A stretch of DNA of 32,000 nt from Candidatus Sericytochromatia bacterium (GCA_036676455.1 JAKFCW010000047.1:69203-101202), one strand, 5' to 3'; shown: positions 1,837 to 29,894, numbered from the stretch's first letter. Notes: generated from the sequence alone by a model not told the origin. Translations and numbers: made by a program.

Positions 1837-2628
1837 CTAGAGGATGCCGATGGCGATCGCCATGCCGATGCCCGTTGCCAGGATCGCGAGGAATCGCCAG
1901 CCATCCCGGGAGCGCTTCTGGGCGAGAGCGCCACCTTGAAGCTCCAGGGCACAGGCGTGAAGGCTGCGCGCCAGCCCTTCGCGGTCGTCAGGCGCGGCCA
2001 TCACCGCCCCGATCACGCGGTGCATCTCCTGCGAGTCGCAGCGGCGCGCCAGCGAGACCAGGGCCTCGTTTCGGCCGCTCCCCAGGCGCGTGTCCTGGAG
2101 GTAGCGAAACCACTCGTCCTTGAGCTCTTTGCCCGAACGAATCCGGGCGCGGATGGCCATGCCGACCGCCGATTCGAACGGCATGCCGACCCAGAGGTAG
2201 CACGAGACCGTATCCACCCAGTCGGGCAATGCGCGGGAGATCCGGTCGCGACGACGCCTCGCCGCCCCTTCCAGGATGCTGCCGCCTAGCAGCCATGCCA
2301 GCGACGCGAGCGCCGTGCCGCCGACCATGCCCCAGAGCGCGCCCGAGCGATCGGCGATCCAGCCCGCGTAGGTCACCCCGAATACCCCCGCGCCGAGCAC
2401 GATGACCACCGACACCGGGCTGGGCCCCTTGGCGGCACCCAGTGCCCTCACGGCGTCGAGCAGCCAGAGCGAGGCGCCGGACCAGCCTCCCGACATCTGC
2501 AAGCTCTCCACCTCGCTGAGCATGGATAGCCGCCGGGCCACCGCCCGCCTCTTTCTCAGCGCCCCGACGCGCAGCATCATCAAGAGGACGAGGGTGCCGA
2601 GGACTCCCAATCCCAAAAGGACCGCCAT
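1837..2628 (-). CDS. T2SS-F-domain membrane protein, TadC-like, short and divergent
   Basis: 263-aa ORF with an N-terminal TM segment and a central TM cluster. The segment LPDWVDTVSCYLWVGMPFESAVGMAI...GRNEALVSLARRCDSQEMHRVIGAV resembles the T2SS-F (TadB/TadC) domain. There is a C-terminal TM segment. The gap to the upstream gene is 1 nt. Confidence 0.65.
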   Translation of the reverse strand: MAVLLGLGVLGTLVLLMMLRVGALRKRRAVARRLSMLSEVESLQMSGGWSGASLWLLDAVRALGAAKGPSPVSVVIVLGAGVFGVTYAGWIADRSGALWGMVGGTALASLAWLLGGSILEGAARRRRDRISRALPDWVDTVSCYLWVGMPFESAVGMAIRARIRSGKELKDEWFRYLQDTRLGSGRNEALVSLARRCDSQEMHRVIGAVMAAPDDREGLARSLHACALELQGGALAQKRSRDGWRFLAILATGIGMAIAIGIL

Positions 2629-2629
2629 C

Positions 2630-3325
2630 CTAGCCTCCTCCCCATGCGCCGTCCAGGACGCCTATCAAGCGACGCCGTCCATCCAGCAGCTCGGCGATCT
2701 GATCCAGGGCCGAAGCCAGGCGCTGGCCCTTTTGTGGATGGTACGCGATGGCCTTCGCCAGCATCTCCGTCTCGAGGATCGGAATCCGCGTCGCGAAGCG
2801 CTCCAGGGCTTGCTCCTCGGGAACGCCCCGCGCGACGTCCTGGCGCACGCGGCCGAACTGAGCCGCCACCGGCTGCATGCCGGATCGCTCGACGGCTTCG
2901 AGGGCCGTGAAGAACGAGTTGGTCGCTCTCAGCCGCTCGGCGAGAATCCGGACGGCCGCCGGAAGCTGCCTGCGGACCATGCGCATGCTCCAGCCTTTCC
3001 AGAGCAGGTCCCCGGTCCCGAGCACGAGCACGAAGCCTGAGACGGCGACGACCGCCGGCAGGAAGCCCCATGCGACCCAGGTCGGAACCAGCAGCAGGGC
3101 TCCCATCGTGGCGAGCCGGACGGCCTGCGGAACCCGTAGCTGGCGCTTGCGCGTGCGGGGCTTTCGCGCCCGCTTCTTGGGTTCCTCGACGGGAACCAGC
3201 GCTCCGCCGACGGTTTCCAGGCTATCGAGCCGGGACTTGACTCCCGACTTGCCGCGCGCGGGCCAGACGGCCAGGATGCCCAAGGCCACGCCCGTCACGG
3301 CGAGAAATAACAGCAAATAGGTCAT
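2630..3325 (-). CDS. T2SS-F-domain membrane protein, TadB-like, short and lacking the usual C-terminal TM segments
   Basis: 231-aa ORF with an N-terminal TM segment (LLLFLAVTGVALGILAV) and a central TM pair. A T2SS-F-like segment follows (LPAAVRILAERLRATNSFFTALEAVE...VPEEQALERFATRIPILETEMLAKAI). The protein ends right after this domain. Confidence 0.6.
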   Translation of the reverse strand: MTYLLLFLAVTGVALGILAVWPARGKSGVKSRLDSLETVGGALVPVEEPKKRARKPRTRKRQLRVPQAVRLATMGALLLVPTWVAWGFLPAVVAVSGFVLVLGTGDLLWKGWSMRMVRRQLPAAVRILAERLRATNSFFTALEAVERSGMQPVAAQFGRVRQDVARGVPEEQALERFATRIPILETEMLAKAIAYHPQKGQRLASALDQIAELLDGRRRLIGVLDGAWGGG

Positions 3326-3337
3326 GGCTAATCCCCG

Positions 3338-4480
3338 CTAGGCCCCGAAGCCGTTGGGGGCGGGGCCCCGGCGCAGCCAGTTGAGGAAGCCCTGCAAGGG
3401 CTGGGGCTGCAGGGTCATCAGAGCCATGGTCTGGCGGGACTCCCCCATGGCAGCCACCATGCGGGAAAGCTCGCGCGCCAGCGGTCCCCGGGGATCGGAC
3501 TGCAAGATCGGGATGCCCTGGTTGACGGCCGCGCGGACGCGCCCCGGATCGTGAGGCAGGGTGTAGTCGATCGGGCGCTTCAGGGTACGGGCGGCATCCT
3601 CGCGTGAGACCTCGGAGCGCTCGGCCCAGGCCACGAACTCGAAGCGCGAGGTGTCGATCCCTTGCTCTCTCAAGGAGGCCAGGTCCCGCTGGATGGCCCG
3701 CAGGTGGCTGAGATCCAGGTTGAGGGGAACGAAGACGCGATCGGCCTCGCGCAGCAGCGTCCGGTTGAGCTCGGTTTGCGACGGATGGGTGTCCGCGACG
3801 ATCCAGGCATCGCGCTGCTGCAGCCAGCCCAGGAGCTGCGCGAGGCGCTCGGGGGTCGTTGGAGCCTCGGAGGGCGTTGGCGCCATGAGCCGCACCCCGG
3901 TCGGGTGGGTGGCCAGGCAGGCGTCCAGGCGGTGTGGCGTGGTGACGCTCGAGAAGCCTTGCGGCTGGAGGTTGAGGAAGAGGTCCTGCTCGCCATGGGC
4001 CATGGCGGCGTCGAGGACGATCGTCTCGCGGGAGGTGCTGCGGGAGAGGGCGATCGCCAGGTTGGTCGCCAGCTGCGAGCGGCCGGAGCCTCCCTTGGGG
4101 CCGTAGACGACGATGAGCTTGCCCGAGCGGGGGCGCTCCGGCGGCTTCCGGGTCATCTCGGCGAGGATCCGCTCGAGCGACGTGTCGAGGTCAGCGAGGC
4201 TCGTCACCCCGTCTTTGCCCTCGGGGCCGTCCACCAGGAGCACGCGGGCCTCGGGGCATGCGGCCCGCAGGCCCTCCATCAAGGCGTCGGAACGCGCGCT
4301 CCAGGCCACGATCAGGAGATCGGGACGGCTCAGCGAGGCAAAGCCGATGGCCTCCTCGCCGAGGGCCTCACCGATCAGCGAAAAGCCGGAATGAGACCTG
4401 AGGCGAGGGCCCACGCTGCTCCAATCAGCCTGGTCGACGGGCGCCTGAGGGGAAGAGACCAGCAAGGTACGTAACATCAT
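3338..4480 (-). CDS. TadZ/CpaE-like ParA/MinD-family protein with an N-terminal pseudo-receiver domain
   Basis: I place the start at the ATG at 4480, which forms an ATGA overlap with the upstream stop (MMLRTLLVSS...). The P-loop region is LIVVYGPKGGSGRSQLATNLAIAL and the Walker-B-like segment is DAWIVADTHP. The N-terminal ~120 aa are receiver-like but lack an Asp at the acceptor position (PDLLIVAWSA). Confidence 0.8.
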   Translation of the reverse strand: MMLRTLLVSSPQAPVDQADWSSVGPRLRSHSGFSLIGEALGEEAIGFASLSRPDLLIVAWSARSDALMEGLRAACPEARVLLVDGPEGKDGVTSLADLDTSLERILAEMTRKPPERPRSGKLIVVYGPKGGSGRSQLATNLAIALSRSTSRETIVLDAAMAHGEQDLFLNLQPQGFSSVTTPHRLDACLATHPTGVRLMAPTPSEAPTTPERLAQLLGWLQQRDAWIVADTHPSQTELNRTLLREADRVFVPLNLDLSHLRAIQRDLASLREQGIDTSRFEFVAWAERSEVSREDAARTLKRPIDYTLPHDPGRVRAAVNQGIPILQSDPRGPLARELSRMVAAMGESRQTMALMTLQPQPLQGFLNWLRRGPAPNGFGA

Positions 4481-4818
4481 GATGCCGACGCTCCTTTTGA
4501 CGATTTGGCAGGGGCGGCGTCGATGATCTCGACCTTCAGGTCGGGCCCGTCCCATGAGAAGACGATCTGGCCGGGGCGGTCATGCGTGACCACCACGCGG
4601 CGCACGCTGCGGGGCGCCCCCGCAGGCAACACCTCCTGGCCCGGCAGGGGGGCCGCGACGGCCGGCAGGATCAGGGTCGCGGGATCCATTGCGGAGGAGG
4701 GTGCCGGGGGCTGCTGCTGGGTGGCGTAGAGGGCGCCGGTGGCGAGCAGGCCGCAGCACGCGGCGATCACGATCCGTTGCGGCGTGAGGTTACTGGTGAG
4801 GTTTCGCATGGCACTCAT
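4477..4818 (-). CDS. small membrane-anchored protein of unknown function, first gene of the Tad-like operon
   Basis: 113-aa ORF with GGGAGG upstream. It has one TM segment (IVIAACCGLLATGALY) followed by a Pro/Ala-rich region. It is translationally coupled (ATGA) to the TadZ-like gene. No family was recognised. Confidence 0.55.
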   Translation of the reverse strand: MSAMRNLTSNLTPQRIVIAACCGLLATGALYATQQQPPAPSSAMDPATLILPAVAAPLPGQEVLPAGAPRSVRRVVVTHDRPGQIVFSWDGPDLKVEIIDAAPAKSSKGASAS

Positions 4819-5005
4819 GGGGGGACCTCCCTTCGTTGCACGTATCTCCTTTATCCCGCCAGGGGCTTAAGGCGAGCTGTCGCGCATGTTTCGCGCAGAT
4901 GAATCCGTTGCTTGAGAGCGCGCTTCATACCCGAGTAACACCCGGGCCATTCGACCTCAACACCCCCTGGCTAAGCTGGAGGCGCCCTTTTGTAAAGGAG
5001 GACCC

Positions 5006-6115
5006 ATGACCATCCGCAGTCGAGTCGCCCTGGCGTTCGCGCTCCTCACCCCCCTGAGCGGCTGCTTCATGTGGCCCAGCACGAACGTGCAGCCGCCGGA
5101 CTGGGTCGAGCCCCCGGTCCAGGGCAGCACCTACACTCCGGGGCAACCCTCCCAGAACCCCGAGATCGAGATGTCCCGGCCCGGCTTGCAGGGCGGCACC
5201 TTCGCGGGCAGCGGAACCTCCGGCGCGGCCGACGGCGGCGCCACCGAGGCCCAGTTCCGCGAGCCCGAGGGACTCGTCATCGGCCCGGATGGCAGCCTCT
5301 ACGTCGCGGAGCCCTATGCCTACCGGATTCGCAAGGTCACGCCGGACGGCCGCGTCACCACGCTGGCCGGTGGCACGCTCGGCCGCGGTGACGGCAAGGG
5401 CGCCGGAGCCCAGTTCTTCGGGCCCAAGGACCTCGCTGTCGCGGCGAATGGCAACCTCTACGTCGTCGACTTCGATACGATCCGTCAGGTCACCCCGGAC
5501 GGCACCGTCACGACACTTAGCTTCCAGACCGCCGACGGCCCCTGGGATCCCGTCGAGCTGCTGGGAATCGCCCGCGCCACGGATGGCACCATGTACGTCT
5601 CCACGACCACCGGCATCGACCGGATCCAGGGCACCATGGCGAGCCGCTGGGTGGGCGCGGACGCCAAGGGGTTCCGCGACGGCAGCGGCACGGCGGCCTA
5701 CTTCAACCTTCCGCGCAAGCTGAGCCTCGACAGCCAGAACAACCTCTACGTCGCCGATTTCGGCAACCTGCGCATCCGCAAGGTCACCCCCTCGCGGCAG
5801 GTCACCACCGTCGCCGGCAACGGCATCCTGGGCTTCACCGACGGTGTGAGCAGCAAGTCGCGGTTGAACTTCCCGACGGGCCTCACGGTGGATAGCCAGG
5901 GCAACGTGCTCGTGGCCGACACCTACAATCACGCGATCCGGATGCTCTCGCCCGATGGCCATGTCACGACGCTGGCCGGCAACAACTACCCCGGCTTCGT
6001 GGAGGGTCCCGCGTCCTCGGTGCAGTTCAACCACCCGACCGACGTGGCCGTGGGAGGCGACGGTCGGATCTACGTGGCCGATCTCCAGAACCACCGGATC
6101 CGGGTTCTCCGCTAG
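5006..6115 (+). CDS. NHL-repeat (six-bladed beta-propeller type) lipoprotein
   Basis: 369-aa ORF with AAAGGAGGA upstream. The lipobox is LLTPLSGC. NHL-type units recur (LYVAEPYAYRIRKVTPDG, LYVADFGNLRIRKVTPS, VLVADTYNHAIRMLSPDG, IYVADLQNHRIRVL). Confidence 0.9.
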   Translation: MTIRSRVALAFALLTPLSGCFMWPSTNVQPPDWVEPPVQGSTYTPGQPSQNPEIEMSRPGLQGGTFAGSGTSGAADGGATEAQFREPEGLVIGPDGSLYVAEPYAYRIRKVTPDGRVTTLAGGTLGRGDGKGAGAQFFGPKDLAVAANGNLYVVDFDTIRQVTPDGTVTTLSFQTADGPWDPVELLGIARATDGTMYVSTTTGIDRIQGTMASRWVGADAKGFRDGSGTAAYFNLPRKLSLDSQNNLYVADFGNLRIRKVTPSRQVTTVAGNGILGFTDGVSSKSRLNFPTGLTVDSQGNVLVADTYNHAIRMLSPDGHVTTLAGNNYPGFVEGPASSVQFNHPTDVAVGGDGRIYVADLQNHRIRVLR

Positions 6116-6128
6116 CAAAGGAGTCGTC

Positions 6129-7304
6129 ATGCCGATCCGCAGCCTTTTCCTGGCCCTGTCGCTGACCCTGGTCGCCTGCAGCTCTCCGCCCTCGACGCCG
6201 GCTCCCACCCCGTCGGCCCCGGTGGCGACTCCGCCGGTCGTGAAGCCCGTCACGACGCCTCCGCCCGGCACGACTCCCGTCACCGCGAGCGATCCGTACG
6301 TCTGGACGGTCGCGGGCAACGGAACGGCCGGCTTCCTCGATGCCGAGGAAGGCCACCTGGGCATGCTCCATGCGCCGACCGGCATGGTCGTCATTCGGGG
6401 CGACACCTACATCGCGGACTCCGCCAACCACAAGATTCGCCGCCTGACCTACGACGGTGTGCTCGAGACCGCGGTGGGCACGGGAGAGCGCGGCAACAAC
6501 GGGGATGGCACGAACGGTCCCATGCTCAAGCTCGATACGCCGTTCAAGGTGACGGCCGACGAGGCCACCGGCAACGTCTTCTTCAGCGAGCTGGGCGGCA
6601 ACCTGATCCGCTGCATCGACATCTCCCGGCGGATCATCACGATCGCCGGCGGCGGCGATTACCTGCCCGATGCCGGCACGTCCATGCGTGGCGTCTACGT
6701 GCAGCTCTCGGAACCGGCGGGACTTTCCTTCGATTCGGCCGGCGAACTCTACGTCGCCGAGCGAGGCGGCCACCGGATCCTGCGGATTTCCACCGACTGG
6801 ATGGTGACGGTGGTGGCCGGCAACGGCGTCCCGGGCTTCGCGGGCGACGACGGCCAGGCGCTGGACGCCGAGTTCCGGCAGCCCACGGACGTCTTCGTGG
6901 ACGATCAGGACAACCTCTACGTGGCCGACACTGGCAACCATCGGATCCGCCGCATCGGCTCGGACGGCACGGTCACGACCGTGGCGGGCACGGGCGTCGC
7001 GGGGGGCGAGGGGGATGGGGGGCTCGCCACGGAGGCCCAGCTGAACCACCCGACCGGAGTCACGATCGACGCCTTCGGCAACCTCTACATCGCGGACTCG
7101 GGCAACCACCGGATCCGGCAGGTGCAGCCCGACGGGACCATCGTCACGATCGCGGGCTCCATCTTCGGCGGGTACGGCGGAGACGGGGAATTGCCGTCCC
7201 AGGCGCAGTTCAACATCCCCTACGGCGTGGCCGTGGCTCCGGGCGGGGTGCTGCTGGTGGCCGATCGCGACAACCACCGCCTGCGGCAGTTCATGCTACC
7301 CTAG
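6129..7304 (+). CDS. NHL-repeat lipoprotein, paralogue of the upstream gene
   Basis: I use the internal start at 6129 (MPIRSLFLALSLTLVACSS, lipobox LVAC), preceded by AAAGGAG at 6117-6123. A Pro/Thr-rich linker precedes the NHL units (YIADSANHKIRRL, LYVAERGGHRILRI, LYVADTGNHRIRRI, LYIADSGNHRIRQV, LLVADRDNHRLRQF). Confidence 0.9.
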   Translation: MPIRSLFLALSLTLVACSSPPSTPAPTPSAPVATPPVVKPVTTPPPGTTPVTASDPYVWTVAGNGTAGFLDAEEGHLGMLHAPTGMVVIRGDTYIADSANHKIRRLTYDGVLETAVGTGERGNNGDGTNGPMLKLDTPFKVTADEATGNVFFSELGGNLIRCIDISRRIITIAGGGDYLPDAGTSMRGVYVQLSEPAGLSFDSAGELYVAERGGHRILRISTDWMVTVVAGNGVPGFAGDDGQALDAEFRQPTDVFVDDQDNLYVADTGNHRIRRIGSDGTVTTVAGTGVAGGEGDGGLATEAQLNHPTGVTIDAFGNLYIADSGNHRIRQVQPDGTIVTIAGSIFGGYGGDGELPSQAQFNIPYGVAVAPGGVLLVADRDNHRLRQFMLP

Positions 7305-7390: not shown

Positions 7391-8422
7391 TTAGTTGATG
7401 GTGATCTTGTACTCGGTAAGCGGGTCCAGCTCCGTCACGCCGAGATCCGGAAAGACCTGACCATCGTACGAGTTGAAGTCCACGTTCGCCGTGGTGGGAC
7501 CCGCCAGATCAACCGTGACGTTGCGCACCTGGCCATTGACCAGGGTGATCGCTTGCTCGATACGGTTCGCCGCGGTACCGGCGGCGTCCTTCGTGACGAT
7601 ATGCAGCTTCCAGGTGCCCGCGTGCACGGGGCCGATCGTTTGAACCTGGCCACCAGCCAGGTTGAGCATGAGGGGGGAGGCAGGATCATCCACCCAGGCA
7701 TCGAACTTGTATCCGGTCGGCAACCCATTGAGCCTCAAGCTCACCCGTCCCCAAGGCTTCACGTAGTTGACGGATTCCGCCGGAATGGCGCCGCCATTCG
7801 CCCGCATGTACTGGCCGATCTTGACTCCGTCCACCAAGCTCGGATGCATGGCCAGCGGTCCCGTGACGGTGACGCCCCACAAGATCATGTCGTTCACCAG
7901 CTTCTGCACCTGGCTGACATTCGTACTGATGGCCATCGCCGCGTTCCCGTTCTCGAGCATGTTCGTGTACACCTCGGACGTGGCAGTGGTGGTCCACGAC
8001 AAGTCGACCTCGTTGGCACCGGGCTCGATGGTCTTCACCGCGCCCACCACCGCTCCGGAGACCTCCGAGTCATCGGTCCTCAGGGCAAAGGCCTTGAAAA
8101 CGCGGTTAGGGCCCATCGGGACGTTGAACTGGACAGAGCCCGTTCCGGCGGCGATGGAAATCGTCTCGGAGAGGGGCGTCACCATCCCGGGGCCCGTGAC
8201 CTCAACGCGGGCCTTGGTGATTTCATAGGTCGGAACCGTCTGGACGCCGAAGCTGGAACTCGTGATCTTCGGAGTGAAGGCGCCCAAGGAGATCGTGACC
8301 GGCGCCGTCTTGGTAGCCACCTGAGGCACCGAGCCCTGGTCGAGAGCCGTTGGAGCGAAAGGCTGGCATGCCGAGACCGACATGGCCGCTGCTGCCGCCA
8401 GGCTGAGTATGATGCGCTTCAT
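7391..8422 (-). CDS. lipoprotein of unknown function, same family as the 15.2-22.9 kb array
   Basis: 343-aa ORF with AAGGGGG upstream. The lipobox is AAMSVSAC. The N-terminal module is beta-rich (VTISLGAFTPKITSSSFGVQTVPTYEITKARVEVTGPG). The composition is natural, unlike the Arg-rich antisense ORFs. Confidence 0.8.
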   Translation of the reverse strand: MKRIILSLAAAAAMSVSACQPFAPTALDQGSVPQVATKTAPVTISLGAFTPKITSSSFGVQTVPTYEITKARVEVTGPGMVTPLSETISIAAGTGSVQFNVPMGPNRVFKAFALRTDDSEVSGAVVGAVKTIEPGANEVDLSWTTTATSEVYTNMLENGNAAMAISTNVSQVQKLVNDMILWGVTVTGPLAMHPSLVDGVKIGQYMRANGGAIPAESVNYVKPWGRVSLRLNGLPTGYKFDAWVDDPASPLMLNLAGGQVQTIGPVHAGTWKLHIVTKDAAGTAANRIEQAITLVNGQVRNVTVDLAGPTTANVDFNSYDGQVFPDLGVTELDPLTEYKITIN

Positions 8423-8499
8423 TGAGTACCCCCTTCCCCGGCTCGACCTGCGGTTCGACTTTGGCCGGGATTTTGCGATGTCGATGCTACGTAGTTATC

Positions 8500-8528
8500 T
8501 AGTTAACCTTACCATTGCTTGCTTCAAA
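8500..8528 (-). promoter_or_regulatory. candidate promoter for the 343-aa lipoprotein gene
   Basis: On the minus strand: TTGAAG (8528-8523), a 17-nt spacer, then TAACTA (8505-8500). It sits in the most A/T-rich patch of the 101-nt gap. Confidence 0.2.
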
Positions 8529-9294
8529 CGGCTCCACCATGAGCAAGAAGTCGCTCGGTATCGGCGTAAATTGCCAGGTAATACGGAACCGTCAGCCGCT
8601 TTTGATCCTCGCACTCGAGCACCCATCCCAGGGGATGCGATACCAATACCCGTCCGTACAGGTTGCCCAGGCGCAAGCCCTCTCCAGGCCTGACCTTTTT
8701 CAAGCCCCTTCCCAAGACGAGGCTGGACAGGAGCAAACCGGTGGGGACAGCGAGGAGCGCCGAGACCCAAGGGGCCCAGGTAGCAAGGACGCTGAGTTCC
8801 AGGGTGGCCGCCAGGGTCGAAAGCCCGAATTGCGCGGATAGCAAGGCCGTCGCGATGCAGAGGGGAGGAAGGGCGATCGCCCCTTGCGGAACGATCCGCA
8901 TCTGGCGCTCCAGCTTCCGTTGCGCCGCGTCCTCGAGCTTGGCGAGCAACTCCGCGAGCACCGCTGCCACCGTTTCGGGATCGTCAGTCTGATCGAGAGT
9001 TTGCGTGAGACTTCCCCACGGGTCCCCATCCGATGGCTCAACGGGTTCGATGAGTGGCTTGCCTCTGGTCAGGAAATCGAAGAGGCGAACCCTGGATCGG
9101 ACGCTGGCATCCGGATCCGAGACAGCATCGGGAAAAACGTAGGGATTCGGACGTGGAGCGAGCTCCGGCGCTTCCACCTTGAAGACGTAGGGACTTCGAC
9201 GCGGTAGGCCCTTGATCGTGTTCAGGTCGATGACGTTAGCCATGGGACGTGCCGCAGGCGGTAGATCGGAAGTTCGCTGAGGGACGGACATCAC
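8524..9294 (-). CDS. two-TM membrane protein of unknown function, last gene of the mot operon
   Basis: 256-aa ORF. GTG at 9294 or ATG at 9291 overlaps the motB stop. The N-terminal ~140 aa are Pro/Asp-rich and soluble. Two hydrophobic segments follow (AIALPPLCIATALLSAQFGLSTL, WVSALLAVPTGLLLSSLVLG), then a short C-terminal domain. Confidence 0.65.
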   Translation of the reverse strand: MMSVPQRTSDLPPAARPMANVIDLNTIKGLPRRSPYVFKVEAPELAPRPNPYVFPDAVSDPDASVRSRVRLFDFLTRGKPLIEPVEPSDGDPWGSLTQTLDQTDDPETVAAVLAELLAKLEDAAQRKLERQMRIVPQGAIALPPLCIATALLSAQFGLSTLAATLELSVLATWAPWVSALLAVPTGLLLSSLVLGRGLKKVRPGEGLRLGNLYGRVLVSHPLGWVLECEDQKRLTVPYYLAIYADTERLLAHGGAV

Positions 9295-10025
9295 GGGGCC
9301 TCCTTCGGTTCGACCACGGGAATGGTTGCCGGGCGAGACTCGGGATAGAGCCGGATCACGATCCTGCGGTTGCGCGCCTGATTCTCCGGAATCGGCTTGC
9401 CCGCAGCGTCACGGTTGGGAACCTTCGGGTGGATATCCGAGTAGCCTGCGGCCTTGAGGCGCGATTGCTCCACGTCGGCCTCCAGCATGAAGCGGATGAC
9501 GTTCGTGGCCCGCCGCGCGGAGAGCTCCCAGTTGGAGGGAAATTCGGCGGTGCGAATCGGGTTATCGTCCGTATGCCCCTCCACCTCGATGGTGTAGGAA
9601 CGGTAGGTTTCGTTCTTCAACTCCTCGGCGATCTCGGTGAAGGTAGGCTTGATCGTCGGCAACAGCTCGGCCTTGCCGCTGTTGAAGAGGATGTTGGACG
9701 AGAATTCGACTACCACGCCCTTCTTGTCCTGGCTGACCTCGACCTGCTTTTCAAGGCCCTTGCTCTCGACGATCCGCTCGATCTGCTGCTTGATCTCCGA
9801 AATCGGACGTGCCGTTTCCTTACCGGTAAAGTCCTTTTGAAGCTGGGCGGAGACCTGCTCGAAGGCGCTGATGTCGACCGTTGAGACCGCCAGCATCATG
9901 ATGAAGAGCGCCATCAGGTTGGTGATGGTGTCGGCGTACGTGATCAGCCAGCCCTCGTCCTCCTGAAGTCCGCTGGAGCGGTGGGATCCGAAGGGATTGC
10001 GGTTCTGGCCGAAAGGACTTGCCAT
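9291..10025 (-). CDS. motB: MotB-type stator subunit with an OmpA-like peptidoglycan-binding domain
   Basis: 244-aa ORF. The TM segment carries the conserved Asp (WLITYADTITNLMALFIMMLAV). The C-terminal OmpA-like motif is VEGHTDDNPIRTAEFPSNWELSARRATNVIRFM. Confidence 0.9.
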   Translation of the reverse strand: MASPFGQNRNPFGSHRSSGLQEDEGWLITYADTITNLMALFIMMLAVSTVDISAFEQVSAQLQKDFTGKETARPISEIKQQIERIVESKGLEKQVEVSQDKKGVVVEFSSNILFNSGKAELLPTIKPTFTEIAEELKNETYRSYTIEVEGHTDDNPIRTAEFPSNWELSARRATNVIRFMLEADVEQSRLKAAGYSDIHPKVPNRDAAGKPIPENQARNRRIVIRLYPESRPATIPVVEPKEAP

Positions 10026-10846
10026 CAGGTCCTCGCGGGGGTCTTAGCCCCCTTCGATGCCGCGAAGTGGTCGTAGTGGAAGGCGGGATCCATCAGCGCG
10101 TTCAAGCGATCCTGGACGTACAGGGGCGCCTTCTTCTGCGCGATGAGGACGATGCCCTCGAGTTGCATGTAGCGGCGGTGGCGCTGGATTTCCAGGATCT
10201 GCTGGGTCTTGGAGGCCGCCGGGATGAAGAGCAGGCGGGCCGCCATGACGCCATAGAGGGTGGCCAGGAGCGCCACGGCCATCGCGGGACCGATCTTGGA
10301 GGGGTCGGATCCCATGTTGGCCATCATGATGACCAGACCGATCAAGGTCCCCACCATCCCGAAGGCCGGCGCATGGCCACCCATCTGGTGAAGGATGGTG
10401 GCGGGAACCATGCGTCGCTGATGCTCCGACTCGATGAAGTCCCCCAGGAACAAGCGCAGGTCGGGCTCCTTGTAGCCGTTCATGAGCAGGGTCAGGGCGT
10501 ACTTCAAGAAGCCATCGAGCTTCTTTTTGGCGACCTCATCCTCGAGGGGACCGAGGCTCTGCTGGGTCGCGTAAGACCACTCGACCATCTGCTTGATGTC
10601 TGAGCGCAGGGTGCTGGGCTGGATCGGCTGCATGACGAAGATGCGGCCGAGCGTGACGAGCGCGCGCCAGACGTAGCGACTCCGCGCCCCGATCATCGCC
10701 GCGGCCACGGTGCCGCCGAAGATGATGGCAAACGGCTCCAAGCTCCAGAACATCGCGATGCTGCCGGAGTGCGCGACGATCGCCCAGCCGGTCAGGCCGA
10801 AGCCCAGGATGATTCCGAGGACGGTGGAGATCGAGATCATCGGCAT
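10025..10846 (-). CDS. motA: MotA/PomA-type stator channel subunit
   Basis: 273-aa ORF with GGAGG upstream. There are two N-terminal TM segments and a large cytoplasmic loop. The signature GGHAPAFGMVGTLIGLVIMM is present, and the last TM segment contains LLFIPAASK. Both conserved prolines are present. Confidence 0.9.
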   Translation of the reverse strand: MPMISISTVLGIILGFGLTGWAIVAHSGSIAMFWSLEPFAIIFGGTVAAAMIGARSRYVWRALVTLGRIFVMQPIQPSTLRSDIKQMVEWSYATQQSLGPLEDEVAKKKLDGFLKYALTLLMNGYKEPDLRLFLGDFIESEHQRRMVPATILHQMGGHAPAFGMVGTLIGLVIMMANMGSDPSKIGPAMAVALLATLYGVMAARLLFIPAASKTQQILEIQRHRRYMQLEGIVLIAQKKAPLYVQDRLNALMDPAFHYDHFAASKGAKTPART

Positions 10847-10855
10847 TTCAACCTC

Positions 10856-12013
10856 CTATCGGAACGACATGCCGATGGTGGCATGGTAGCTCATCCCGCC
10901 GTACGTCATCGAATTCGCATAGCCGCTGCCGGCTGGGGCCAGGCTGACGTCCTGCTGCGGCACGTAGGTGAGCCCGAGGTTCATGAAGAGGTCCGGCGTG
11001 AAGCGGATCAAGAAGCCTCCCTTTGCGGTGGAGGGCTGGCGCAACGCGTCTGCGAGCGAGATCGCGAAGCCCGGCCCTGCGTACAGGTTGACCACGCCGA
11101 GGTTGTCCTTGCCCCCGAAGAGCGGGTCGAGACGCATGAACAGCAAGGGGGAGACGTTGACCAGGCCGTGATAGAGCGAGAAGTCGACGCCGCCGCCCTG
11201 GATGTACTCGGCATCGATACCGACCGCGAGATTCTCCCAGAAGTAGGTGTTGCGGAGCGCCATCACGCCAGCGCTCAGCGAGAGATCCGCATGACGCGCG
11301 GGAACTCCGGCCGTGGACGAGACCCGGTCGGCGGCGAAGCCCGTCACGCCGGAATAAAGGTAGACGCCATTGTCCCGGGTCTTCCGCTCGAGTTCGGCGC
11401 GCTTGGCGGCCTCGGCCTTGCGGGCTTCTTCCTCCGCCTTGGCGCGCATGGCGGCGCCCTGCCGAACGGCGTTGAAGTCGTAGGCATAGCGATGCGTCCA
11501 GACGATCTCGCCATCCGAGGCGCGCACCAGCTTGAGATGAACCATGACCACCTCGTTGGTCACGAAGGGCGCGTACATGAGCACGGCATCCGCCCCGACG
11601 TTTCCGGCCAGATCGCGCAGGCGATCCAGCGACTCGATGGTCGTGCTGACCTGGAGCTCGGTAGGCGTCGAGACGATCTTGCGGACCTTAGACTCGCGCG
11701 ACTCCACCACCTTGAAGCGACGAAGCGGCAGCAAGAGCTCGTGAAGGCGGTTCTCGACGAGGAGATCCAGCTTGTCGGTCTCGGGGCGGCGGCGCTCATT
11801 GAAAAGAAAGATCCGCAATAGCGTGGGATCGATCTTGGTGATCTCCTCGGGAAGCGCCGGGATGATCTGCTCGGCAGCCTGACTGTAGTTCAAGAGATCC
11901 GTGACGAGGGGATGCAGGGCAGGCGGCTCGACCTCGGCCATTGCCGGCGACGCGACGCTAGTCAAGGCGAGCGAAAGCGCGATTCCTCCAGATAGTAGCC
12001 ACTTGGCGCTCAC
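10856..12013 (-). CDS. secreted protein: periplasmic alpha/beta domain, charged coil and C-terminal beta-barrel (putative outer-membrane component)
   Basis: 385-aa ORF with a GTG start and GGAGGAGG upstream. The signal peptide is ALSLALTSVASPAMA-EV. The coil is AAMRAKAEEEARKAEAAKRAELERK. The last ~190 aa show alternating hydrophobicity and are Gly/aromatic-rich, ending in ...YHATIGMSFR. Confidence 0.75.
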   Translation of the reverse strand: MSAKWLLSGGIALSLALTSVASPAMAEVEPPALHPLVTDLLNYSQAAEQIIPALPEEITKIDPTLLRIFLFNERRRPETDKLDLLVENRLHELLLPLRRFKVVESRESKVRKIVSTPTELQVSTTIESLDRLRDLAGNVGADAVLMYAPFVTNEVVMVHLKLVRASDGEIVWTHRYAYDFNAVRQGAAMRAKAEEEARKAEAAKRAELERKTRDNGVYLYSGVTGFAADRVSSTAGVPARHADLSLSAGVMALRNTYFWENLAVGIDAEYIQGGGVDFSLYHGLVNVSPLLFMRLDPLFGGKDNLGVVNLYAGPGFAISLADALRQPSTAKGGFLIRFTPDLFMNLGLTYVPQQDVSLAPAGSGYANSMTYGGMSYHATIGMSFR

Positions 12014-12016
12014 CGA

Positions 12017-12766
12017 TTACCTCCTCCGATTCCGAATCCAGTCAAGCGCTTGCTGCGCGTCCGAGAGCCGTGGGTCCAACTCGAGGGCCCGGACCCACCC
12101 TTCCTCCGCCTGGCGCTCCCGACCAAGCTTGAAGCAAATCGATCCCCGCATGGCATGCAGGTGCGCCACCTGGTCGTCCACGCCCAGCGCGGCATCGACG
12201 ACCTCCAGGGCACTCTGGTAGCGGCCCTGCTGGGCCAGGCGCGGAGCACGGTAGAGCGCGTCGGCGACGATCTGCAGGCGTTCCGAGCCCAGCTCACGCG
12301 ACGCCGGTATCGCCGGAGCCTTGGCAGCGGCCGGCATCGGCAGCTCCGCATTCTTCGGGGTGGGAGTGGGGGAGGCCTGCGCCTGCAACTCCTCTTCCGC
12401 ATACTGCAGCCATTCGTAGGGCACATGGCTGGCGCTGGGGGAAGGCATCGGCTCGGGAAGGGCGCTGGTGGCCGACTCCTTGGCGTCGGTGCTCGAGGCT
12501 TCAGGGGTCGGCGAGGCCGCGGGAATCGCCCCCGGCGCGGGAGATTTGTCCATCTCGATGCGCAGGAAGAAATCAGGTTGATTGGTATCCAAGAGGGAAT
12601 CCACGTCAACCGTTTCCAGCCCGCGCTTCAGGTGGATGACTCCCTCGCGCTGGCCGGAAACCGGCGACGTCAGGCCCTGCTGGATGAGGACGAGGGGAAG
12701 CGTGGCGACGATGGTCAGGCCGTAGGCGATCGCCCAGACGCGCCGACGGTTCGGCAGATTTGCCAT
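12017..12766 (-). CDS. inner-membrane-anchored periplasmic TPR protein
   Basis: 249-aa ORF with GGAGGAAA upstream. The positively charged N-terminus and TM segment are MANLPNRRRVWAIAYGLTIVATLPLVLI. A Pro/Ala/Ser linker leads to C-terminal TPR-like units (RLAQQGRYQSALEVVDAAL, HAMRGSICFKLGRERQAEEGWVRALELDP). Confidence 0.75.
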   Translation of the reverse strand: MANLPNRRRVWAIAYGLTIVATLPLVLIQQGLTSPVSGQREGVIHLKRGLETVDVDSLLDTNQPDFFLRIEMDKSPAPGAIPAASPTPEASSTDAKESATSALPEPMPSPSASHVPYEWLQYAEEELQAQASPTPTPKNAELPMPAAAKAPAIPASRELGSERLQIVADALYRAPRLAQQGRYQSALEVVDAALGVDDQVAHLHAMRGSICFKLGRERQAEEGWVRALELDPRLSDAQQALDWIRNRRR

Positions 12767-12768
12767 GG

Positions 12769-14613
12769 TTAGTTTCCTCCGGCTTGCGGAATCACCAGCA
12801 CGCGGGTGGTCTGGCGAATCCGGCTAAGCAAATCACGGCGCATGGCCTCCCGGGCCTCCGGGTTGGCATCCAGCAGAGACGGGCCCTTGAGGGCCTCCTC
12901 GACGACCATGCGGCCGCGCTCGTTGAGCGCACCAACGAGCGCGTTGAGCACGTCGGCCGGCGCATCGCGCAGCACCTCGGCGAGTTGCTCCTTGGGGAAA
13001 TCGCGGACCGCATCGCGCAGCACGTCCTTGGGGAGCTTCGGCAAGTCGTCGAATGCCACGTAGCTTTGCTTGACCTGCTTGAGCACCTGGGGGTTCTGGG
13101 TCGACAGCTCCTGCATGATGCGCCGCTCCATCTCCCGGTCGGAGTGGTCCAACAGGCCCACCAGCACGCCGATGCCGTTGGTGACGCCCGTCGAGAAGCG
13201 CGGCGCCTCCGACGCCTTGCTTGCAAGGTGAAGCGCGATGTCGTTGAAGGTCTCGAGGGGAATCTCGGAAAGCGCGCCCATGGCTGCGGTGACGGTTCCC
13301 AGCTCCCCGGGACTCAGCAGGTGCATCAGGCCGATCGCCCGCTGGGGAGGCAGCTGGGAGAAGGCCAGCGCCTGGACGCGTGGGGACTCGTCCTGGAGGA
13401 TGTAAATGATTTGCGAGTCGTCGAGCGTCTGAAGAAAGGCGAAAGGCTCGTTACGGCGCGTGCTCGTCCGAGAACCGGCCGTGTGGCGATCGCGCACGAT
13501 GGCGCGAATGGCCTCGCTGAGGGCCTGTTGCAACTCCTCGGCGGGAACGTCGGCACGCTCGAACTGCTTGAGCTCGATCGCCCGCCAGATTTCCTCCGAG
13601 ACGCCTGCGAAGAGGCGACGGCTCACGCCCGCCCCGAGGGTACGGGTCAGCAGCGAGGCCCGCTCCATGCCAAGTTCTTGACCGAGCAGCTGGTGCATGT
13701 AGCGCTCGGCAAGCTCGGGCTCGCTCAGGATCAGCATCGTCAACTCGTGGCGCAGCGGCTCGAGGTTGGGCCCCTGAGGCTCGGCCGGCGTGCTCTTGAG
13801 AGCCGAAGCCGCGTGTGCGGCCTGCGGTGCGAGGGAAGGCGCATCCGGACGACGGCGCGAACGCGTGAGCAGCCACCCCAAGCCCAGTCCGGCGCCGGCA
13901 GCCAGGACGGCCCACGCCCACGGCGGAAGGAGCGGAGAATCAGCCGTGCCGGCGGGAGTCGACGGGAAGTCGCGGCGCGTGATCTCGACGATCAGGTCCC
14001 GGGCGTAGGCATGATCCACCTTCTGGGCGACCATGTTGCGAATGAAGTCCTCATCCTGGCTCGTCAGGGAGGTGGGCAGCACGACAGAAACTTTCAAACG
14101 ATCGATCGACTGGGTTGGAGCCGGATCGTTCGGAGGAGCCACGGGCGCCGGATTCGGCAGATAGGGCATCGCCATGGAGGAAGGCGGCTCGAGCGTCTCA
14201 TCCTCACGCTGTCCCCCGAAGAGGCCCGGAAGGATCGGCGGCTCGTCGGCGCCACGTGTCGACAGAGCCGAGGGCCGCTGCGTCGGAAGCTGGGGCAGCA
14301 TCTGAGGCGCTTGCTGAGGGAGCGGCTGTTGCACGTAAGCGGGCCGCGAGCCGCGCTCTCCGCCCTCCTTGAGGATCGCCTTCACCTGCACGATGAAGCG
14401 GTCGGCGCCGAGGTAGGCGCTCAGGCCACGATCCAGGCTCTCCTCGAGGTAGCGCTCGTAGCTCAGCACTCCCAGCTCAGACTCCGATCGGGGAACTTCC
14501 GGCGGATTGAGCTGCGCGCTGGCGGCCATGGGAACGAGGGTCCCCGCCAGCAGCGCTCCAATAATGACGGCTTTTCGATTCTTCAACGGTACGCAACCTC
14601 GCAATTGGTTCAA
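12769..14613 (-). CDS. membrane protein: FliF-like periplasmic segments fused to a FliG-like cytoplasmic region (N, middle and C-terminal parts)
   Basis: 614-aa ORF. The start is uncertain: TTG at 14613 or TTG at 14586. There are two TM segments. FliF-like patterns are YERYLEESLDRGLSAYLGADRFIVQVKA and IDRLKVSVVLPT...ARDLIVEITRRDF, the second lying directly before TM2. FliG-like stretches are FLQTLDDSQIIYILQDESPRVQALAFSQLPPQRAIGLM and VAFDDLPKLPKDVLRDAVRDFPKEQLAEVLRDAPADVLNALVGALNERGRMVVEEAL. Confidence 0.8.
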   Translation of the reverse strand: MNQLRGCVPLKNRKAVIIGALLAGTLVPMAASAQLNPPEVPRSESELGVLSYERYLEESLDRGLSAYLGADRFIVQVKAILKEGGERGSRPAYVQQPLPQQAPQMLPQLPTQRPSALSTRGADEPPILPGLFGGQREDETLEPPSSMAMPYLPNPAPVAPPNDPAPTQSIDRLKVSVVLPTSLTSQDEDFIRNMVAQKVDHAYARDLIVEITRRDFPSTPAGTADSPLLPPWAWAVLAAGAGLGLGWLLTRSRRRPDAPSLAPQAAHAASALKSTPAEPQGPNLEPLRHELTMLILSEPELAERYMHQLLGQELGMERASLLTRTLGAGVSRRLFAGVSEEIWRAIELKQFERADVPAEELQQALSEAIRAIVRDRHTAGSRTSTRRNEPFAFLQTLDDSQIIYILQDESPRVQALAFSQLPPQRAIGLMHLLSPGELGTVTAAMGALSEIPLETFNDIALHLASKASEAPRFSTGVTNGIGVLVGLLDHSDREMERRIMQELSTQNPQVLKQVKQSYVAFDDLPKLPKDVLRDAVRDFPKEQLAEVLRDAPADVLNALVGALNERGRMVVEEALKGPSLLDANPEAREAMRRDLLSRIRQTTRVLVIPQAGGN

Positions 14614-27119: not shown

Positions 27120-27238
27120 GACGCTTCCAGGGGCTTCGCGCCCGCCAACACCCGCTTGACGCTTGCCAGGGGAGGTACGATCCCGACTAGGGCTCCCTAG
27201 AGCAGGGAGCGAGCAAGAATCGGGAGGAGGGTCAGCGC

Positions 27239-27919
27239 GTGAAACGAGCAGCCTTGAGCCCCGCCATCAGAATTGCGGCCGGGATCGCGGTGGGCACGGC
27301 CTGCCTGGGTCTGGCGCCGCCGGCCGTCGCTCACGCCGCGAGCGGCGCCTGTCCCGACTGCGAGATGCGCATGATGCGCCCCGGCGGCGGCGGGGGCATG
27401 GACGACGACGACATGCGCATGATGCAGGCCCATCGCGCCAGCGGCGGGCACAAGCACTTCAACCTGGTGGTTCAGCCCTACTGGAACATGAACCAGGACG
27501 CCATCTACACGCTCCTCGGCATGGAGATGCTCAAGCAGGATTCGCTCGGCTGGAAGGGCGGATTTGGCATGTACGGCGGCATGAACTTCGGCGTCACCAG
27601 CCAGACCAACACCTTCCATTACGGTGGCGCCATCATGGGCAAGGACTTCTCGGCCGGCCCGCTCACCCTGGGCATCGGCGCCCTGCTGGGCTTCGGCAAG
27701 ACCGCCAACGTCCTGCCCGCGGTCCTGCCGGCCGGCATCACCAACTACTACATGTTCGGGGTCGGCGCGCCGCGCATCGGCCTCGCATGGACGCTCTACG
27801 ATCGCATGGAAATCGGCCTCGACGCCTCGTACCTGTTCACGACCAACCCCACTATCGGGAACAGCCCCGCCGTCAGCCTGCGGCTCTCCACCATCTCCTG
27901 GGGCAAACACGGGAACTAG
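27239..27919 (+). CDS. secreted Met/Gly-rich protein of unknown function, possibly a small beta-barrel
   Basis: 226-aa ORF with a GTG start and GGGAGGAGG 8 nt upstream. The signal peptide ends in PPAVAHA-AS. The N-terminus carries CPDCEMRMMRPGGGGGMDDDDMRMMQAH. The remainder is Gly/aromatic-rich. I chose this ORF over two overlapping Arg-rich ORFs. Confidence 0.7.
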   Translation: MKRAALSPAIRIAAGIAVGTACLGLAPPAVAHAASGACPDCEMRMMRPGGGGGMDDDDMRMMQAHRASGGHKHFNLVVQPYWNMNQDAIYTLLGMEMLKQDSLGWKGGFGMYGGMNFGVTSQTNTFHYGGAIMGKDFSAGPLTLGIGALLGFGKTANVLPAVLPAGITNYYMFGVGAPRIGLAWTLYDRMEIGLDASYLFTTNPTIGNSPAVSLRLSTISWGKHGN

Positions 27920-27930
27920 CGTGCTCGTGA

Positions 27931-27979: not shown

Positions 27980-28954
27980 TTAGGGAGTCGTCTTGGCGAA
28001 GGTGTCGATCACCCGCAGCACGGCCGGCCCCAGCGTCACGACGAACATCGCCGGGAAGATGAAGAAGACCAGCGGGAAGAGCATCTTGATCGGAGCCTTC
28101 ATCGCGGCTTCCTGCGCCCGCTGCCGGCGGCGGGTCCGCAGGTGCACGCTCTGGGTCCGGAGGACGATGCCGATGCCGACGCCCAGCTGATCCGCCTGGA
28201 TCAGGGCGGCGACCACGCCTTCGAGGTCCGCGACCCCGCAGCGCATGCTCATCTCGCGCAGGGCCTCCGCGCGGGGGCGGCCCATGCGGATGTCGCTGAG
28301 GTAGCGCGCGAACTCCTCGCGCAGCTCGCGCCCCGCGTCGTTATCCTTGCCCGTGATGCGCATCAGCGCCGCGTCGAAGCTGATACCCGCCTCCACGCAC
28401 GAGGTGATCAGGTCAAGCGCATCCGGCAGCGCCCGCACGATGGCGTCCCGGCGCGCCGCGATCATCTTCGTCAGCAAAATGCCCGGCCCCGCGAGGCCCA
28501 AGATGCCGATCAGCGCCGCGGCGATCAAGGCCGCGCCGGGGTTGAACGGTGTCAGCAGCCACCAAACCAGCGGAGCCAGCGCCACGCCCAGGAGGCGCAG
28601 GGCCAGCATCCCTTGCAACGCGATGGGAGCGTAGACTCCCGCCTGGTGCAGCCGGTCCGAGAGCACGGTAATCTGGGAGCGCGGAGTCAACCGCTCGCCC
28701 ATCTTGCCCAGAACGCCGATGGCCGGGGCGATCACCCGCTGGACGAAGGGCTGATCCAGCAGCTGCTGGCGAGGCATGTAGCCGCCGGTGGCTCCCTGAA
28801 CCGCCACCAGGGAGGCAATCCGACGGTTGACGTCCCGCTCGCGCGAGGTGGACAGGCCGAAGCCCACCATCGTGGCCGACGTGACGGCCACGAAGCAGGC
28901 GGCCGCCATCACGACCGGATCTGCCGCCAGAATCATAGGTGCAACAAGCATCAT
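27980..28954 (-). CDS. tadC: Tad/Flp pilus assembly platform protein TadC (T2SS-F family)
   Basis: 324-aa ORF with the canonical T2SS-F domain (LPDALDLITSCVEAGISFDAALMRITGKD...LREEFARYLSDIRMGRPRAEALREM). The C-terminal segment is KAPIKMLFPLVFFIFPAMFVV. Confidence 0.85.
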   Translation of the reverse strand: MMLVAPMILAADPVVMAAACFVAVTSATMVGFGLSTSRERDVNRRIASLVAVQGATGGYMPRQQLLDQPFVQRVIAPAIGVLGKMGERLTPRSQITVLSDRLHQAGVYAPIALQGMLALRLLGVALAPLVWWLLTPFNPGAALIAAALIGILGLAGPGILLTKMIAARRDAIVRALPDALDLITSCVEAGISFDAALMRITGKDNDAGRELREEFARYLSDIRMGRPRAEALREMSMRCGVADLEGVVAALIQADQLGVGIGIVLRTQSVHLRTRRRQRAQEAAMKAPIKMLFPLVFFIFPAMFVVTLGPAVLRVIDTFAKTTP

Positions 28955-28955
28955 G

Positions 28956-29894
28956 CTAGTACCTCACGTCCACGATCTTCATGATCAGCATCACGCCCAG
29001 GATCTCCGAGACGACGCCCCCGGCCACGAGCATCTGGCCGCGCGGGTCCGTGAAGAGGCCCATGATGTAGCTGGGGCTGATCAGGAAGAAGAGGGCGCCG
29101 ATGCCCACCGGCAAGCCGGCCAGGACCCATCCCGACAGCCGGCCCTGCGCGGTGAGGGCCTGGACCTCGCCGGAGATGCGGATCCGGTCGCGGATGGTGT
29201 CATGGATGTTGCCCAGGATCTCGCTCAGGTTGCCGCCGGTCTCGCGCTGGATGACCATGGCCTGGACCATCAGGTCCACGTCGGTGGTGCCGACCCGGTC
29301 GCGCAGGTTGCGCAGTGCCGTCTCAGTGGGCACGCCGAAGTTGATCTCGGCGACGGCGGTGCCGAACTCGGTCGAGATGGGGGCGCTCATCTGGCGGGAT
29401 ACCATCTGGATGGCCTGCAGGAAGGAGTTACCCGCCTTCAAGGCATTGATGACGAGCATGAGCGCGTCAGGAAGCTGCTCGCTGAAGGCCTTGAGGGTCT
29501 TGGTGCGACGCTGCCGGAGCTGGAAGGTCGGGCCTAGCGAGCCCACGGCCGCCACGGCCAGAGCGATCAAGGGGTTCTGGAAGAGGAAGAAGGCCATGGC
29601 GCCGCAAGCGAGGCCCAGGAGGGCACCGGCCAGCATGAACTCGCCAGGCGTCCATGCCCAACCCACCTGGTAGAGCTGGCGATCGAGGCGTTTGGCGATC
29701 GCCAGCCCCTTCACCAGCGGATCCACCATCGCGCCCAGCCGGTTGAAGAGCTTGGGCTTCACCGCCGGCGCGTGCGGCTGCTCCAGCTGGCTGATGCGGC
29801 CGTCGATGGCGGCCTCCTGGGGGTTGCCCATCATGCCCCCCAGGGCGAAGACGACCCCCGTGATGCCGATGGCGAGAATCAGGAACGTGATCAT
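28956..29894 (-). CDS. tadB: Tad/Flp pilus assembly platform protein TadB (T2SS-F family)
   Basis: The start at 29894 (MITFLILAIGITGVVFALGG) forms an ATGA overlap with the cpaF stop. The T2SS-F domain is LPDALMLVINALKAGNSFLQAIQMV...EINFGVPTETALRNLRDR. Confidence 0.85.
   Translation of the reverse strand: MITFLILAIGITGVVFALGGMMGNPQEAAIDGRISQLEQPHAPAVKPKLFNRLGAMVDPLVKGLAIAKRLDRQLYQVGWAWTPGEFMLAGALLGLACGAMAFFLFQNPLIALAVAAVGSLGPTFQLRQRRTKTLKAFSEQLPDALMLVINALKAGNSFLQAIQMVSRQMSAPISTEFGTAVAEINFGVPTETALRNLRDRVGTTDVDLMVQAMVIQRETGGNLSEILGNIHDTIRDRIRISGEVQALTAQGRLSGWVLAGLPVGIGALFFLISPSYIMGLFTDPRGQMLVAGGVVSEILGVMLIMKIVDVRY

Follow-up and report, generated by a model that had tools for sequence, protein, structure and literature searches.

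The analyzed DNA (hereafter referred to as the window) is a 32 000-nt stretch corresponding to positions 69203–101202 of contig C47 of a 4.0-Mb metagenome-assembled genome (MAG; 86% complete), whose nearest named relatives are MAGs of Candidatus Sericytochromatia (isolates LC028 and CBMW_12), the non-photosynthetic sister class of the oxygenic cyanobacteria. The window contains a four-gene operon on the minus strand, here termed the module, whose genes were designated M1–M4. These encode (i) a 113-aa bitopic protein (M1; positions 4477–4818), (ii) a 380-aa paralog of the TadZ/CpaE proteins (M2; 3338–4480), (iii) a 231-aa predicted platform protein of the TadB type (M3; 2630–3325) and (iv) a 263-aa predicted platform protein of the TadC type (M4; 1837–2628). 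Orthologous modules were compared across four lineages, namely the genus of the window (g1), two further genera of the same family (g2 and g3), and L026, a more distant metagenomic lineage represented by a 10.8-kb Logan contig (63% GC).

Inspection of the ORFs and of the sequence confirmed the operon structure described in an earlier note on this DNA. The M1 stop codon overlaps the ATG of M2 (…gcatcATGAtg…), M2 and M3 are separated by 12 nt and M3 and M4 by 1 nt, and the operon is closed by an intrinsic terminator on the same strand (positions 1790–1823; 15-bp stem with 13 G-C pairs, followed by a T-rich tail). The ORF of M2 is itself open over positions 3338–4555; the real start of the gene is at 4480, and the overlap with the M1 stop is also present in g3. 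A ribosome binding site (RBS), GGGAGG, lies upstream of the ATG of M1. An Rfam search of the operon and its leader identified no riboswitch or known RNA (nothing below E 0.3).

The module itself lacks an ATPase, a Flp pilin, a prepilin peptidase, a secretin and CpaB. No T2SSE-type ATPase gene lies near it, and M3 directly follows M2 with no tadA/cpaF gene in between. Profile searches, a phylogenetic tree and the gene inventory agree with the proposal of the earlier note that this is a diverged, paralogous TadZ/TadB/TadC set without its own motor. The module represents a fast-evolving but functional, lineage-specific set of paralogs of the cytoplasmic/inner-membrane part of the Tad (type IVc) machine.

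Proteins encoded by the module

M3 matched the Pfam family T2SSF (PF00482) with 27.7 bits (cut-off 25.2) over profile positions 2–93 of 125, and scored 29.3 bits in a genome-wide scan. M4 alone gave no Pfam match; one of its orthologs has a precomputed match to PF00482. A family profile of M4 (13 members) aligned with the TadC protein encoded in the window with a probability of 98.2% (E 2.9e-14; 35% identity over 95 residues), and far more weakly with TadB and with M3. The same profile retrieved 3353 TadC-type proteins from 1.84 billion representative proteins. The T2SSF assignment made in the earlier note is thereby borne out for both proteins, for M3 by Pfam and for M4 by way of its family profile. 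Identity to the TadB and TadC proteins of the same genome is 22–37%, mostly across the cytoplasmic domain.

The canonical proteins used for comparison are encoded on the minus strand at the other side of the window and have the sizes and coordinates given previously: TadC (positions 27980–28954; 324 aa), TadB (28956–29894; 312 aa) and the ATPase CpaF (29891–31339; 219 bits to T2SSE and 345 bits to the TadA-family model). They are accompanied by the start of canonical CpaE (from 31317, running past the window end; 427 aa in full). An ORF located 3′ of canonical tadC is open on both strands (27197–27910 on the minus and 27163–27930 on the plus strand); its minus-strand reading is rich in Gly, Ala, Asp, His and Val, an odd composition, yet it is 68% conserved in another genome (G018).

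The comparison with canonical TadB and TadC suggested in the earlier note was performed as a maximum-likelihood tree of 35 sequences, comprising the module proteins of seven genomes and the canonical proteins of the class. M3 grouped with TadB and M4 with TadC (support 100/99 each). Each of the two module clades branched next to the entire canonical sample as its sister group (moderate support, 88/79 and 86/78), on stems of 1.1–1.2 substitutions per site, and the between-genus divergence of the module proteins was about three times that of the canonical ones. Since long branches meet in this tree, as the program itself warned, the exact point of origin of the module is unsure.

AlphaFold2 models of M3 and M4 had a mean pLDDT of 71 and 70, respectively, with ten-residue block means of 77–91 and 79–94 in the cytoplasmic domains. 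In both models this domain is predicted to form a six-helix bundle, which is complete in M3 despite the truncation described below. The top Foldseek matches in PDB were the cytoplasmic domains of EpsF, OutF, PilC and TcpE (target TM-score 0.64–0.75, rmsd 2.6–3.9 Å; for EpsF, OutF and PilC alone 0.70–0.75 and 2.6–3.2 Å), with E-values that are weak (0.02–1.8) because the domain is small. Judged by profiles, tree and predicted folds, M3 is TadB-like and M4 is TadC-like.

Transmembrane (TM) segments were assigned by a simple hydropathy scan rather than a trained predictor. M3 consists of an N-terminal TM segment, a basic loop, a hydrophobic hairpin and the six-helix T2SSF cytoplasmic domain, and has no C-terminal TM hairpin. 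M4 has TM segments at residues 1–25, ~70–92 and 244–263 and a cytoplasmic domain of T2SSF fold at ~120–240. The cytoplasmic domain is flanked by TM segments on both sides in M4 and not in the M3 of g1, where nothing follows residue 228. The earlier note had described both proteins as short platform forms, and had correctly recognized the lack of C-terminal TM segments in the 231-aa protein, although this feature is specific to g1. M4 retains the single C-terminal TM helix of TadC and is shorter than TadC mainly at the N-terminus (its domain begins ~42 residues earlier), with a shorter C-terminal tail.

Comparison of the orthologs revealed how the truncation of M3 is distributed. In g1 the protein has 230–237 aa in every cluster found (~15 clusters), the orthologs of g3 (294 aa) and g2 (286 aa) have two and one hydrophobic C-terminal segments, respectively, and the protein of L026 (267 aa) has one. 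The additional segments of g3 and g2 are located precisely within a gap of 58 columns in the g1 sequences, beyond which the last few residues realign. The loss of the hairpin is a genus-specific deletion, apparently in frame, that was later kept under selection, and is not general to the module. Across lineages, the similarity of M3 and of M4 is limited to their cytoplasmic domains. The turn glycines G167 and G200 of M3 and G148 and G183 of M4 are kept and, by our reading of the models, would lie at the membrane-distal tip.

M2 matched models of the ParA/MinD/MipZ and CpaE types, all below the curated equivalog cut-offs. Among the paralogs in the genome, canonical CpaE is the best match (30% identity across 369 residues, the N-terminal receiver-like domain among them), and among relatives of solved structure it is the TadZ-like ATPase 3EA0 (Walker A KGGDGGS). 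Read from its alignment with CpaE, the N-terminal domain, in which the end of strand beta-3 reads …DLLIVAWS, appears to be an atypical receiver without the phospho-acceptor Asp. The Walker A motif of M2, KGGSGRS, retains KGG and has GRS in place of GK[ST], i.e. Arg at the position of the P-loop Lys; the pattern KGGxGRS is kept in all four lineages. Canonical CpaE (window positions 31317–32000, and L019, L021, L022 and L024) carries RGGCGKS in g1, with Arg for the signature Lys, and KGGAGKS in g2 and g3. A TadZ domain fused to CpaF on another contig of the same genome (C40) reads KGGQGRS. Since this fusion protein has GRS and 3EA0 has KGGDGGS, an Arg replacing the P-loop Lys does not indicate decay within the TadZ family. 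A CpaE-M2 heterodimer with complementary degeneracy (RGGCGKS/KGGSGRS) was also considered and dropped, the pairing being confined to g1. In one JGI metagenome contig (L003, positions 8411–9295) the M2 ortholog (294 aa) is devoid of the N-terminal receiver-like domain; M1, M3 and M4 are intact there.

M1 orthologs (106–230 aa) are encoded upstream of the TadZ-like gene in all four lineages. In each, an Arg precedes the N-terminal hydrophobic anchor, the linker is rich in Pro, Ala and Ser and varies from ~30 to ~150 residues, and ~30 aa at the C-terminus form a conserved motif (R-I/V-V-x-x-H-x-x-P-G-x-V/I-V … G-x-x-L-x-V-E). No Pfam or NCBIfam family matched M1. Its interpretation as a remnant of CpaB/RcpC was rejected, as a profile comparison aligned the membrane anchor only (probability 4%). 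It was likewise rejected as a lipoprotein in favor of a TM anchor, since the Cys pair lies within a hydrophobic stretch of 19 residues and is not retained in g2 or L026. A periplasmic location of the C-terminus is suggested by how the charges are distributed and by the extensible linker; the conserved motif is probably held there by the flexible linker.

Conservation, distribution and the neighboring NHL lipoprotein gene

Pairwise dN/dS values were calculated within g1, where dS between the four genomes is ~0.4–1.2. They amounted to 0.23–0.38 (M1), 0.21–0.29 (M2), 0.20–0.26 (M3) and 0.16–0.32 (M4), compared to 0.17–0.36 for the neighboring genes encoding NHL1 (see below), PspC and a TPR protein, and to 0.08, 0.15 and 0.15 for canonical TadB, TadC and CpaF, respectively. 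The module genes match their neighbors in constraint, whereas the canonical Tad genes are constrained somewhat more tightly. No stop codon or frameshift relative to the homologs was found in M1–M4 across the seven genomes, nor in M3 and M4 of ~15 metagenomic clusters, and a pseudogenized remnant is not indicated. All four genes are under purifying selection and are not decaying; the term “degenerate”, which the earlier note applied to the module, is misleading for a gene set that is also conserved in four lineages.

True M4 orthologs (>130 bits) are present in seven of the 47 species-level genomes of the class. These seven carriers are all the genomes of g1, g2 and g3, and among the 47 genomes no ortholog was found in the fourth genus of the family (g4) or in other families. 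A search of the 1.84 billion representatives with the M4 profile yielded only four clusters below E 1e-30, together with one divergent lineage (P0043/P0189), beneath which there was a continuum of ordinary TadC proteins of ~300 aa. The best non-orthologous M4 score in this library was 93 bits, compared to 84 bits for canonical TadC of the same family, which fits an origin of the module within the lineage without proving it.

The module and a canonical Tad locus of the type found on contig C47 share the same contig and the same strand in six of the seven genomes; in the seventh (G011) the module lies on a 1.8-kb contig and its linkage cannot be judged. Matched TadC-type genes are located 7–26 kb from the module across genomes. 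In G018 the two loci are from 4 kb apart, with only the NHL gene pair and one ORF between them. Genus g4 has neither the module nor a TadB of the C47 type (best match 30–36% identity, against 59–60% in g2 and g3).

The most constant neighbor of the module, rather than the canonical Tad locus, is a gene missed by the earlier note, namely NHL1 (positions 5006–6115, plus strand), which encodes a 369-aa lipoprotein with a Pfam NHL beta-propeller and is divergent from the operon. It is adjacent to the module in g1, g2 and one g3 genome, and separated from it by two inserted genes in the other g3 genome. Among the 47 genomes, full-length NHL1 orthologs (at least 53% identity) are found in all seven that carry the module and in no other, clearly set apart from the next match. 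The pairing recurs on contig L026, where an NHL gene whose product is 55% identical to NHL1 faces a complete set of M1 (106 aa), M2 (365 aa, with GRS), M3 (267 aa) and M4 (223 aa), although M3 and M4 are only 37% identical to the proteins of the window. This recurrence is more telling than the co-occurrence counts within the clade. A second NHL-repeat lipoprotein gene, NHL2 (6129–7304, plus strand; 391 aa if read from the probable start, with a linker rich in Pro and Thr), lies beside NHL1 in g1–g3 and is absent beside it in L026.

The 187-bp intergenic region between M1 and NHL1 (4819–5005), from which the two transcription units diverge, is a probable promoter/operator. It shows 70% mean column identity in the four g1 genomes, with conserved non-coding blocks, e.g. 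around GGTGTTA.TC.GGTATGAAG and TTCATCTGCGCG.AACA. No Rfam family matched this region, which may contain a binding site for a regulator.

The genome encodes many NHL-repeat lipoproteins, a large family with matches on at least 15 contigs. One of them is encoded ~1.3 kb past the canonical flp genes (C47 106909–108144); the parts of g2 and g3 genomes that were fetched showed no counterpart, but may end before this position.

Because the module is intact, under selection and kept together with an NHL lipoprotein gene, it is best described as a lineage-specific offshoot of a known machine and not as its relic.

Tad loci and motor ATPases of the genome

A scan of the genome for PF00437 revealed six ATPases, two of them of the CpaF type. 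One is the CpaF of the window, located ~25 kb from the module within the canonical Tad locus of the same contig. The other, encoded on contig C40, is a 751-aa TadZ-CpaF fusion. An ATPase encoded on contig C127 was considered as an orphan motor for the module and rejected, as it is a 362-aa PilT-like protein and the associated Flp match was far below the cut-off. No further orphan CpaF was found in the assembly, which is 86% complete.

Beyond the window (C47 101.0–105.6 kb), the canonical locus continues with the rest of CpaE, a TadG-like protein, the secretin CpaC, CpaB, a TadE-like protein and two flp genes, whose products are nearly identical pilins with the G/xxxxEY motif. The genes for CpaF and the secretin and both flp genes of this contig belong to the canonical locus, 25–34 kb from the module. 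The canonical locus contains no prepilin peptidase gene; genes of peptidase family A24 were found on no contigs other than C40 and C32. Contig C40 also carries a second complete Tad locus (~38.4–48.2 kb), comprising the fusion gene, TadB and TadC, a secretin, a prepilin peptidase and two Flp genes. A genome-wide search for extra cpaF, flp and cpaC copies, as proposed in the earlier note, was positive as regards this locus, with its fusion, secretin and two Flp genes, and negative as regards an orphan CpaF. In total, the genome contains two full Tad loci and a third, partial set, the module.

The Tad locus of g4 is of the C40 type. In one g4 contig (L025, G014:C25:195000–214999) it is directly adjoined by a FliF/G-TPR-X-MotA-MotB cluster. 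A cluster of the same composition is located in the window (8524–14613) between the C47-type Tad locus and the module, next to the latter, and C40 has a FliG-like gene and MotA/MotB 13–25 kb from its Tad locus. Such a rotor-stator set may tend to travel with Tad loci. As a conserved partner of the module it was rejected: it adjoins the module in only part of the g1 genomes, G018 has no such cluster between module and Tad locus, and the fetched flanks of g2, g3 and L026 did not contain it.

Possible role of the module and comparison with known systems

Every characterized platform of the T2SSF family known to us works with an ATPase of the PilB/GspE/TadA family. As the module has no motor of its own, it most likely docks a CpaF made elsewhere. 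We tentatively favor the view, which we hold to be the leading one without regarding it as established, that the module is a motor-less accessory platform. According to this proposal, M2 would act as a positioning protein of the TadZ/CpaE type and recruit the CpaF hexamer, M3 and M4 would form a back-to-back TadB-like/TadC-like heterodimer on which this hexamer docks, and the best candidate for the motor would be the CpaF of the linked canonical locus. On the outer side the partners would probably be M1 and the divergently encoded NHL beta-propeller lipoprotein(s), acting in the periplasm, and not a secretin. Its output might be an additional assembly site, another range of substrates or a means of controlling the motor.

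In the published system, TadB and TadC have one GspF-like domain each. An AlphaFold-Multimer model pairs them back to back and places this heterodimer on the side of the CpaF hexamer that faces the membrane, where two conserved tip glycines take part in the contact; extension and retraction are both powered by CpaF, and what the TadB/TadC platform contributes to them has been modeled only (PMC11300603). We infer that the turn glycines kept in M3 and M4 correspond to these contact glycines, which the paper does not number. The positioning of Tad machines is the task of TadZ proteins, and fusions of TadZ to the motor exist (bioRxiv 10.64898/2026.07.08.737194). A contact between TadZ and the motor is plausible, since TadZ is fused to CpaF on C40 and a TadZA fusion exists in Bdellovibrio. 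It is conceivable, if rather unlikely, that a single bifunctional CpaF serves two alternative TadZ-TadB-TadC sets, the canonical one building the Flp pilus via the secretin and the diverged one performing a second job with M1 and the NHL lipoprotein (retraction, a second site, or non-pilin export or sensing).

Several observations weigh against an accessory pilus platform. The first turn glycine of M3 is replaced by Thr or Ser in all four lineages (A-G-x-S-F to A-T-N-S-F). The number of C-terminal TM segments in M3 is 0, 1 or 2, and the length of M4 varies between 213 and 281 aa across lineages, which is odd for a platform that must handle pilins. No canonical tad gene is present within the 3–5 kb flanking the module in L026, i.e. 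on the rest of the 10.8-kb contig; linkage to Tad is thus either not universal or not visible in a contig of this length. The co-occurrence counts, all taken from a single clade, represent approximately one evolutionary event. Moreover, the canonical machine does not need the module, as other families have a C47-type Tad locus without it. The plastic membrane domains and the context of L026 are the main arguments against simple handling of pilins.

These two observations also bear on a different explanation, in which the module neither assembles nor retracts a filament and has been repurposed, with M1 and the NHL lipoprotein, as a trans-envelope scaffold or signaling complex, possibly ATPase-free, with M2 as an organizer of the ParA/MinD kind. 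In its favor, NHL1 alone among the neighbors is kept in all four lineages, and it diverges from the operon at a common, conserved promoter region; conservation covers the cytoplasmic domains and the M1 motif, whereas the membrane segments of M3 and M4 are plastic, and the branches are long, with about three times the canonical divergence. However, a T2SSF-family protein acting without a PilB/GspE/TadA-type ATPase would be the first known to us, the turns facing the ATPase are mostly conserved, and the module has retained its TadZ paralog and is linked to a complete Tad locus in all six genomes in which this could be checked. We regard such repurposing as possible, yet doubtful. The module might also serve as a regulator or parking site that holds CpaF off the canonical platform, or switches its direction, and in this way controls extension versus retraction of the Flp pilus. 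The arguments for CpaF docking apply here equally; that platform proteins could channel the motion of CpaF in opposite directions was left open in the earlier study (PMC11300603), and the loss of the C-terminal hairpin of g1 M3 without loss of selection would fit a role of the cytoplasmic domain. This idea is purely inferential, leaves the conserved periplasmic motif of M1 and the NHL lipoprotein unexplained, and has to account for the families in which a C47-type Tad locus does without the module; we consider it improbable.

By far the least probable explanation is that the module is left over from a duplicated tad locus, has been deprived of its cpaF and is on its way to being lost. The long stem branches, the deleted membrane hairpin of g1 M3, the missing N-terminal domain of M2 in L003 and the Arg at the P-loop Lys of M2 might be taken as signs of such a process. 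It is already contradicted by the selection and conservation data: dN/dS is 0.16–0.38 in all four genes, reading frames are intact in the seven genomes, in ~15 metagenomic clusters and in a fourth lineage at 37% identity, translational coupling, RBS and terminator are all kept, and GRS is itself conserved and also occurs in the TadZ part of the C40 fusion. The results correct the view that the module is a decaying remnant, and document Tad biology in Sericytochromatia, on which our literature search found no pilus work. If, as in the favored reading, a second platform set shares the motor, it offers a natural comparison for the platform features that set direction, site and substrate, and NHL propeller lipoproteins would join the parts list of type IV filament machines. 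Should the module be motor-independent, it would be the first T2SSF-family pair known to us with a non-filament role.

Compared with canonical Tad/Flp systems (tad of Aggregatibacter, cpa of Caulobacter), the module has the same three protein families in the order Z-(A)-B-C, including a pair of one-domain T2SSF proteins and a TadZ with a receiver-like N-terminal domain and a ParA/MinD-type domain. It differs in having no ATPase gene between Z and B, no pilin, peptidase, secretin or CpaB, no C-terminal hairpin in the M3 of g1, and GRS for GKS in M2, and in the addition of an orphan bitopic protein and NHL lipoprotein(s).

Separation of platform and motor genes has a precedent in the Kil system of Myxococcus xanthus, a Tad-like machine in which the platform genes kilG and kilH are located in a different cluster than those for the ATPase KilF and the secretin, yet cooperate with them, and in which lipoproteins of unknown role are encoded alongside (PMC8460266). 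Kil is, however, one machine split in two, whereas the module is an additional set beside a complete canonical locus, and no FHA proteins or pilins accompany it. Dispersed and duplicated tad genes together with a TadZA fusion, which shows that TadZ works jointly with the motor, occur in Bdellovibrio bacteriovorus (bioRxiv 10.64898/2026.07.08.737194), and the fusion on C40 is of the same kind. The extra copies in that bacterium are rcpA-tadA, tadA3 and tadG, i.e. motors and outer parts, whereas those described here are positioning and platform components without a motor. In the literature searched, no description was found of an additional, motor-less TadZ-TadB-TadC set accompanied by a small anchored protein and an NHL lipoprotein. 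Dispersed or duplicated tad genes and TadZ-motor fusions are already known; the composition of the module is new.

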